Below, one piece after another: positions 11,885 through 13,315 of a stretch of 64,000 bases of DNA (position 1 is its first letter; each line of letters starts with the position of its first letter). Under the pieces are notes generated by a model. The model ran no database searches, was not told where the DNA came from, and saw only the letters and a program-made list of their open reading frames with translations. A program made the translations under genes and the position numbers. Source of the DNA: Escherichia coli (lineage in GTDB: Bacteria; Pseudomonadota; Gammaproteobacteria; Enterobacterales; Enterobacteriaceae); NCBI RefSeq assembly GCF_050920415.1, contig NZ_CP169309.1, one strand, 5' to 3'.

Positions 11885-13188
11885 TGCCTAAACTTGTCAC
11901 TTGGATGAACAACCAGCGGGTAGGCGAGTTAACGAAGTTAGCCAATGGCGCGCACACCTTTAAGTATGCACCGGAGTGGTTAGCTAACCGTTATGCCAGA
12001 CCGTTGTCACTTTCGCTGCCATTGCAGAGAGGGAATATCACCTCTGATGCCGTATTTAACTTCTTCGATAACCTGTTACCCGATAGCCCGATTGTACGTG
12101 ACCGGATCGTTAAACGTTATCATGCTAAATCCAGACAACCGTTTGATTTATTGTCAGAAATAGGGCGAGATAGCGTTGGTGCCGTAACGTTATTACCCGA
12201 AAATGAAACCATAACGCGCCCGATAATGGCATGGGAACAGCTCACTGAAGCCAGGCTTGAAGAAGTATTAACGGCTTATAAAGCAGATATCCCTCTAGGC
12301 ATGATTAGAGAAGAAAATGACTTTCGCATCTCGGTTGCTGGCGCGCAGGAGAAGACAGCGCTGCTCAGAATAGGCAATGACTGGTGCATTCCGAAAGGAA
12401 TAACGCCGACGACGCACATCATTAAATTACCGATTGGCGAAATCAGGCAGCCCAATGCGACGCTCGATCTCAGCCAAAGCGTTGATAATGAGTATTACTG
12501 TCTGCTGCTGGCGAAAGAACTTGGGTTGAATGTGTCGGACGCAGAAATCATTAAAGCGGGAAATGTGCGCGCGTTAGCGGTCGAACGTTTTGACAGGCGT
12601 TGGAATGCTGAGCGAACGGTTTTACTTCGCTTGCCACAGGAGGATATGTGTCAGACATTCGGTTTACCTTCATCGGTGAAATATGAATCAGATGGAGGCC
12701 CAGGCATCGCGCGGATCATGGCTTTTTTGATGGGGTCCAGCGAGGCGCTGAAAGATCGCTATGATTTTATGAAGTTTCAGGTGTTCCAGTGGTTGATTGG
12801 CGCAACGGATGGCCATGCAAAAAACTTCTCCGTATTTATTCAGGCTGGCGGCAGTTATCGACTCACGCCATTTTACGACATCATTTCAGCATTTCCGGTA
12901 TTGGGTGGCGCAGGAATACACATCAGCGATCTCAAACTGGCAATGGGGCTTAACGCATCCAAAGGCAAAAAAACGGCAATCGATAAAATTTATCCGCGAC
13001 ATTTTCTGGCGACAGCAAAGGTGCTGAAATTTCCGGAAGTGCAGATGCATGAAATCCTGAGTGACTTTGCCAGAATGATTCCGGCAGCACTGGATAACGT
13101 GAAGACTTCATTACCGACAGATTTTCCGGAGAACGTGGTGACGGCAGTTGAAACCAATGTGTTGAGGTTGCACCGTCGCTTAAGCTGA
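11884..13188 (+). CDS. hipA: HipA serine/threonine kinase toxin, ending 6 codons short of the canonical 440-aa protein
   Basis: Starts MPKLVTWMNNQRVGELTKLANGAHTFKY; kinase core present. Terminates at TGA 13186-13188, which is followed in frame by E-Y-G-I-K and TAA, as expected if a CGA codon became TGA. Confidence 0.88.
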   Translation: MPKLVTWMNNQRVGELTKLANGAHTFKYAPEWLANRYARPLSLSLPLQRGNITSDAVFNFFDNLLPDSPIVRDRIVKRYHAKSRQPFDLLSEIGRDSVGAVTLLPENETITRPIMAWEQLTEARLEEVLTAYKADIPLGMIREENDFRISVAGAQEKTALLRIGNDWCIPKGITPTTHIIKLPIGEIRQPNATLDLSQSVDNEYYCLLLAKELGLNVSDAEIIKAGNVRALAVERFDRRWNAERTVLLRLPQEDMCQTFGLPSSVKYESDGGPGIARIMAFLMGSSEALKDRYDFMKFQVFQWLIGATDGHAKNFSVFIQAGGSYRLTPFYDIISAFPVLGGAGIHISDLKLAMGLNASKGKKTAIDKIYPRHFLATAKVLKFPEVQMHEILSDFARMIPAALDNVKTSLPTDFPENVVTAVETNVLRLHRRLS

Positions 13189-13315
13189 GAATACGGTATT
13201 AAGTAAGATATGGGGTTTGGCCGTTGTTAATGAGCAGGACAATCATGACCGCCAACGACTGGATTCTCCCTTGGTTTATGTTGGTGCGCATAATGTATAT
13301 TATGTTAAATAGCCT

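Follow-up and report, generated by a model that had tools for sequence, protein, structure and literature searches.

The closest described system is the hipBA module of Escherichia coli K-12, a type II toxin-antitoxin module whose toxin is HipA (b1507, NP_416024.1; PDB 3DNT, 3FBR, 2WIU, and others). Toxins of this family are kinases that act on GltX and arrest growth, and HipB neutralises them. The P loop of HipA comprises residues 150–158 and includes Ser150, which is autophosphorylated (PMC6581861). Several alleles of hipA give high persistence, including hipA7 (G22S and D291A) and the clinical alleles P86L and D88N (PMC12321266). In the accessible literature, we found no account of a truncated HipA C-terminus, nor of nonsense alleles that occur in nature; where Wen et al. 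2014 write "C-terminal", they mean the tail of HipB or the C-terminal domain of HipA.

We analysed a 64,000-nucleotide stretch of E. coli DNA (contig NZ_CP169309.1), which we will call the window. Within a canonical chromosomal hipBA operon, a C>T transition has converted Arg435 (CGA) to a stop codon (TGA), so that HipA ends at Ser434. This allele, which we will call R435*, is probably a neutral or near-neutral polymorphism in the length of a known toxin that is intact in other respects. The segment that is lost lies outside the kinase domain, is unconserved, and is naturally missing from many homologues of HipA. HipA(1–434) is most likely still a folded kinase toxin that HipB can neutralise, and retained activity is what its sequence leads us to expect. 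The allele would then be a length variant that is carried by a recent clone.

The hipBA operon in the window

The operon and the features of its hipA allele are as follows.

11483..11596, + strand: hipBA promoter region with four HipB operators (TATCC-N8-GGATA), from a pattern scan
11618..11884, + strand: hipB, antitoxin and repressor, 88 amino acids (NCBIfam NF007271, HipB equivalog)
11884..13188, + strand: hipA allele encoding HipA(R435*), a Ser/Thr kinase toxin of 434 amino acids (RefSeq WP_001125420.1)
12535..12537, + strand: codon 218, TCG (Ser) in place of the CCG (Pro) of the nearest 440-amino-acid allele
13186..13188, + strand: premature TGA at codon 435, from CGA (Arg) via C>T at 13186
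13189..13206, + strand: vestigial, untranslated Glu-Tyr-Gly-Ile-Lys codons and the original TAA of the 440-amino-acid gene

The window and K-12 have the same order of genes (the lsr operon, the yneO autotransporter, hipB, and hipA), and they have in common HipB, the four operators, and all of the key residues of HipA. The pattern scan found all four operators upstream of hipB, starting at 11483, 11511, 11551, and 11579. HipB (WP_001296726.1 in RefSeq) scores 184.5 bits against NF007271, for which the cutoff is 79, and it differs from K-12 HipB by two substitutions, A73T and N85D. The TAA of hipB shares one base with the ATG of hipA, at 11884, and the two genes are translationally coupled. No gene of the operon follows hipA, so no polar effect of the stop codon is expected.

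Upstream of hipB, at 5935–11403 (+ strand), the window has an intact open reading frame for a yneO-type autotransporter (ECSE_1600 family) of 1806–1822 amino acids. The same gene is a pseudogene in K-12 and is frameshifted in H10407 and in NCTC11023.

Residues 1–434 of the window's HipA align to the solved chains of E. coli HipA with E = 1e-288. Eleven substitutions distinguish it from the K-12 protein (S35N, I104L, D107N, V110I, H112R, K119Q, P218S, T343A, R382K, S424T, and G431R), and it ends at Ser434 instead of Lys440. Both domains of the family are present. Couple_hipA (Pfam PF13657) matches residues 6–103 with E = 4e-27, and the HipA_C kinase domain (Pfam PF07804) matches residues 149–401 with E = 3e-51. 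The protein also scores 103.6 bits against TIGR03071 (cutoff 27.8). The HipA_C match is complete, as it covers positions 1–211 of the 213 in the model, and 33 residues separate its end from the new stop. Along with these two domains, the window has the other marks of the family, namely the P loop and the catalytic residues, an adjoining hipB upstream, and the four operators.

Compared to K-12 HipA, Gly22, Pro86, Asp88, Ser150, Lys157, Lys181, Asp291, Asp309, His311, Asn314, and Asp332 are all unchanged. In our alignment of 93 sequences, Lys181 and His311 are invariant, and Asp309, Asn314, and Asp332 are conserved in at least 90%. The alleles hipA7, P86L, and D88N are, like R435*, natural or selected alleles of this one gene, but none of their positions is altered in the window. 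The original prediction placed the lost tail near the autophosphorylation and activity-relevant region of HipA. This does not agree with the protein's layout: Ser150 and the P loop lie 285 residues upstream of the stop in the sequence, and HipA_C ends at residue 401.

Origin and recurrence of the stop codon

Since (13186 − 11884)/3 = 434, the TGA sits at codon 435, in the frame of hipA. The codons after it, still in frame, are GAA TAC GGT ATT AAG TAA, so the end of the gene reads ...HRRLS*EYGIK*. The original prediction had taken this to mean that HipA is six residues short, at 434 instead of 440 amino acids, and that the TGA arose from a CGA codon for arginine. Both points are borne out by the comparison with other strains. 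Codon 435 is CGA in K-12 MG1655 and also in strain 24A16CRGN010, which has the nearest 440-amino-acid relative of the window's hipA (5 nucleotides different). In both of these strains, the gene runs on for five codons past the CGA and terminates where the window has its TAA, and the downstream 18 nucleotides are colinear; the window's 13189–13206 matches the 3' end of the neighbour 440-amino-acid allele exactly, over all 18 nucleotides. CGA is thus the ancestral codon on both major haplotypes of E. coli hipA. R435* is therefore a derived C>T nonsense transition in an ancestrally 440-amino-acid gene, with Ser434 as the last residue of the protein. We also considered that the 440-amino-acid form might be the aberrant one, but both major haplotypes have CGA and encode 440 amino acids, which rules this out.

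The allele has spread with a clone. The complete RefSeq genome of strain MFDS1022581 (NZ_CP169399.1) has a hipBA that is 100% identical to the window's, and its 1305-nucleotide hipA is annotated as encoding WP_001125420.1, with no pseudogene flag. In a large protein collection, this exact 434-amino-acid protein occurs on 95 contigs, in 160 index blocks. We retrieved ten independent assemblies, and all ten have 0 mismatches over the 1305 nucleotides of hipA, with colinear flanks that are nearly identical. The identical hipA in ten assemblies implies a single recent event that was carried by a clone, rather than an error. MFDS1022581 also has a copy of IS2 slightly downstream. The window lacks this IS2, which implies that the window comes from a close relative of MFDS1022581. 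Among complete genomes, the allele is rare: the exact 62-mer around the stop is found in just 1 of the 5,426 complete E. coli genomes in RefSeq.

We then searched for exact matches to the K-12-type local haplotype with TGA at codon 435. These were enterotoxigenic E. coli (ETEC) H10407 (NC_017633.1) and a SEC470 record of the same length and with the same coordinates. The corresponding query with the neighbour-type (CGG) haplotype gave no exact match. The hipA of H10407 (our locus L017, NC_017633.1, 1229–2533) is annotated as encoding an intact 434-amino-acid HipA, WP_001125437.1, which is on 66 contigs. It shares with the window's gene the R435* change, via C1303T, and the 434-amino-acid product. 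But it has a K-12-type backbone, and its private change is T193M, where the window's is P218S. It differs from K-12 hipA at just 2 nucleotides (T193M and R435*) and from the window's hipA at 45 nucleotides, which implies that C1303T arose at least twice independently. Two is a lower bound on the number of independent origins, because a 62-nucleotide exact match skips any TGA allele with another SNP nearby. The original prediction would have been overturned by a reference HipA that ends at the same position. Such a protein does exist, in H10407, but it arose via the same mutation, while K-12 MG1655 has CGA and encodes 440 amino acids. In part, then, this counts against the prediction.

The recurrence of R435* in a reference strain, ETEC H10407, is only mildly notable. 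The hipA gene has five CGA codons (95, 244, 326, 372, and 435). A single transition turns a CGA codon into a stop, and only a stop at codon 435 would spare the protein, so recurrence at this codon is expected under neutrality.

Each R435* lineage has a private missense change. P218S is the only missense change of the window's clone relative to the nearest 440-amino-acid allele; among the matches listed, it was confined to the clone's complete genome, and one record of at least 99% identity lies outside those matches. Column 218 is Pro in all 14 close orthologues and Ala in 62 of 78 distant homologues. T193M predates the stop of H10407, as NCTC11023 has T193M in a 440-amino-acid gene; most distant homologues have Gly, Arg, Gln, or Lys at column 193. 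We considered whether P218S or T193M might be damaging, but neither was flagged, and both columns vary in distant homologues.

The lost tail and the activity of HipA(1–434)

An AlphaFold model of HipA, built with 93 homologues, has a mean pLDDT of 92.7 and a pTM of 0.93, and it superposes on the solved structures of E. coli HipA at 1.1–1.2 Å over 436–437 alignment columns. (This run replaced an earlier one with a shallow alignment of 21 sequences, which was poor, with a pLDDT of 60.5.) In the model, the last helix spans residues 416–437, and residues 438–440 are coil. R435* would therefore take off about one helical turn (435–437) and a three-residue flexible coil (438–440) from a C-terminus that appears to be exposed. 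The helical residues 435–437 are predicted confidently, so in the model it is an ordered element that is trimmed, and not just a floppy tail. As for the solved structures, the deposited HipA chains stop at residue 437 in two PDB entries, and the chain in PDB 2WIU has 446 amino acids, which is six beyond the native protein at the C-terminal end.

Across homologues, conservation stops just before the new C-terminus. Leu433 is the last invariant column in 20 close orthologues (73–90% identity), and after it, the tails differ from one another in sequence as well as in length. Orthologues P0111, P0114, and P0117 end at Leu433 itself, and P0084 ends at position 434. In 83 full-length homologues with 33–54% identity, the column of Leu433 is L, I, or F in 73, and the tail beyond it has 0–31 residues: 3 or fewer in 34 of them, and 1 or none in 13. 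These 13 tails are no longer than that of the R435* allele. Columns 435–440 are unconserved and mostly gapped across the 83 homologues. Residues 435–440 are absent from the window's HipA, but they are not a defining feature of the family. Judging from these alignments, they are very probably dispensable for the fold and function of HipA.

We read the DNA around two of the short orthologues, P0114 (433 amino acids, 78% identity) and P0084 (434 amino acids, 82% identity). Both genes lie in mid-contig, directly behind hipB, and they end in genuine stops, TAA and TGA respectively. The proteins end at the same position as the R435* allele or one residue before it. They keep all of the invariant columns of the alignment, including Ser150, Lys157, Asp309, His311, Asn314, and Asp332. 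In these lineages the short end is the native state, whereas R435* is a recent nonsense mutation of a 440-amino-acid gene. The TGA of P0084 is itself followed by eight in-frame sense codons and then a TAA (our locus L015, 2780–2806), and this tail is unrelated to the tail in E. coli.

The original prediction was that the toxin may be attenuated. More broadly, HipA in this clone might be decaying: the lost end of the helix, possibly together with P218S, would weaken or destabilise the protein, as an early stage of erosion. Residues 435–437 do belong to a confidently predicted helix, and P218S is private to the clone, at a column that is otherwise Pro in the close orthologues. Furthermore, erosion of hipA is common in E. 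coli. A match to hipBA is present in 5,412 of the 5,426 complete genomes, but in about 845 of these (about 16%), the match covers less than 80% of the query, so loss of function would not be unusual. The protein database also contains many shorter forms of E. coli HipA (345–418 amino acids), one of them on 131 contigs. But the tail of R435* is unconserved and is missing from many homologues, including hipB-linked orthologues that naturally have 433 or 434 amino acids. Ser at position 218 is a mild change, at a column that is Ala in most distant homologues. The catalytic and regulatory residues are untouched, as are the positions altered in persistence alleles, and RefSeq treats hipA as intact. 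So attenuation is not what the comparison points to, and we consider it rather unlikely, even in the form of early decay. A point against strict neutrality is that each of the two R435* lineages has one private missense change, which also fits relaxed constraint on hipA.

Selection could instead have favoured the shorter C-terminus, if it alters the toxicity, turnover, or regulation of HipA, for instance by changing the frequency of persisters as hipA7 does. The identical C1303T is found independently on two hipA backgrounds that are 45 sites apart (the window's clone and ETEC H10407), and both have spread: their proteins are on 95 and 66 contigs, respectively. But CGA is one transition from a stop, so recurrence at codon 435 is expected under neutrality as well; the 5,426 genomes yielded only two origins, which is a lower bound; and the high-persistence positions Gly22, Pro86, Asp88, and Asp291 are unchanged. 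A selected tuning allele is improbable on this evidence. We would put slightly less trust still in a more specific version of it, in which R435* has been selected recurrently because trimming the last helical turn and creating a basic C-terminus (...HRRLS) alters stability, turnover, or HipB-HipA regulation and shifts the frequency of persisters, in lineages that include H10407, the prototype ETEC strain and a standard laboratory strain. If it were true, R435* would join the short list of persistence-modifying alleles of hipA as a natural and recurrent variant.

Least probable of all, and very improbable in our view, is that the TGA is a sequencing error or that it is read through so that the 440-amino-acid protein remains the main product. 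The frame downstream is open for five more codons, and E. coli has low-level read-through of UGA by tRNA-Trp. But such read-through usually amounts to roughly a percent or less, and the R435W protein made in this way would be a minor product. The ancestral codon is for Arg, and the homologues have no conserved residue at column 435; given the ancestral codon, selenocysteine or programmed recoding at the TGA also seems unlikely. At least ten independent assemblies share this base, as does one complete RefSeq genome, and the identical DNA in independent assemblies rules out a sequencing error.

A neutral or near-neutral change of length therefore remains the reading that we prefer. A database entry for a HipA of 434 amino acids, such as that of H10407, should not by itself be taken as a sign of a pseudogene or an attenuated toxin. 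For biology, the finding matters little, as this is a probably harmless and already catalogued allele of a known toxin gene.

Genes downstream of hipA

Just downstream of hipA, at 13316–13756 (+ strand), is an open reading frame of 146 amino acids that matches no family. Several assemblies call it as intact, but two RefSeq genomes annotate a frameshifted hypothetical protein there.

Two overlapping open reading frames on the opposite strand look like a split antitoxin. The one at 13898–14092 (− strand, 64 amino acids) matches just the C-terminal half of the Xre/ParS (RES-Xre) antitoxin model. The one upstream of it, at 14076–14291 (− strand, 71 amino acids), has a weak match, below the cutoff, to an RstR-family repressor model. 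No gene for a RES toxin was seen among the adjoining open reading frames and annotations.

Two effector-like genes lie in a small island that separates hipA from the fimbrial operon; at this locus, K-12 carries just yneL and ydeT. A protein of 535 amino acids, at 15044–16651 (− strand), has below-cutoff similarity to models of the type III effectors SspH2 and SlrP, and one RefSeq record gives it an NEL-type E3 ligase domain. The other, at 17344–19308 (+ strand), has 654 amino acids and is annotated as an ankyrin-repeat protein.
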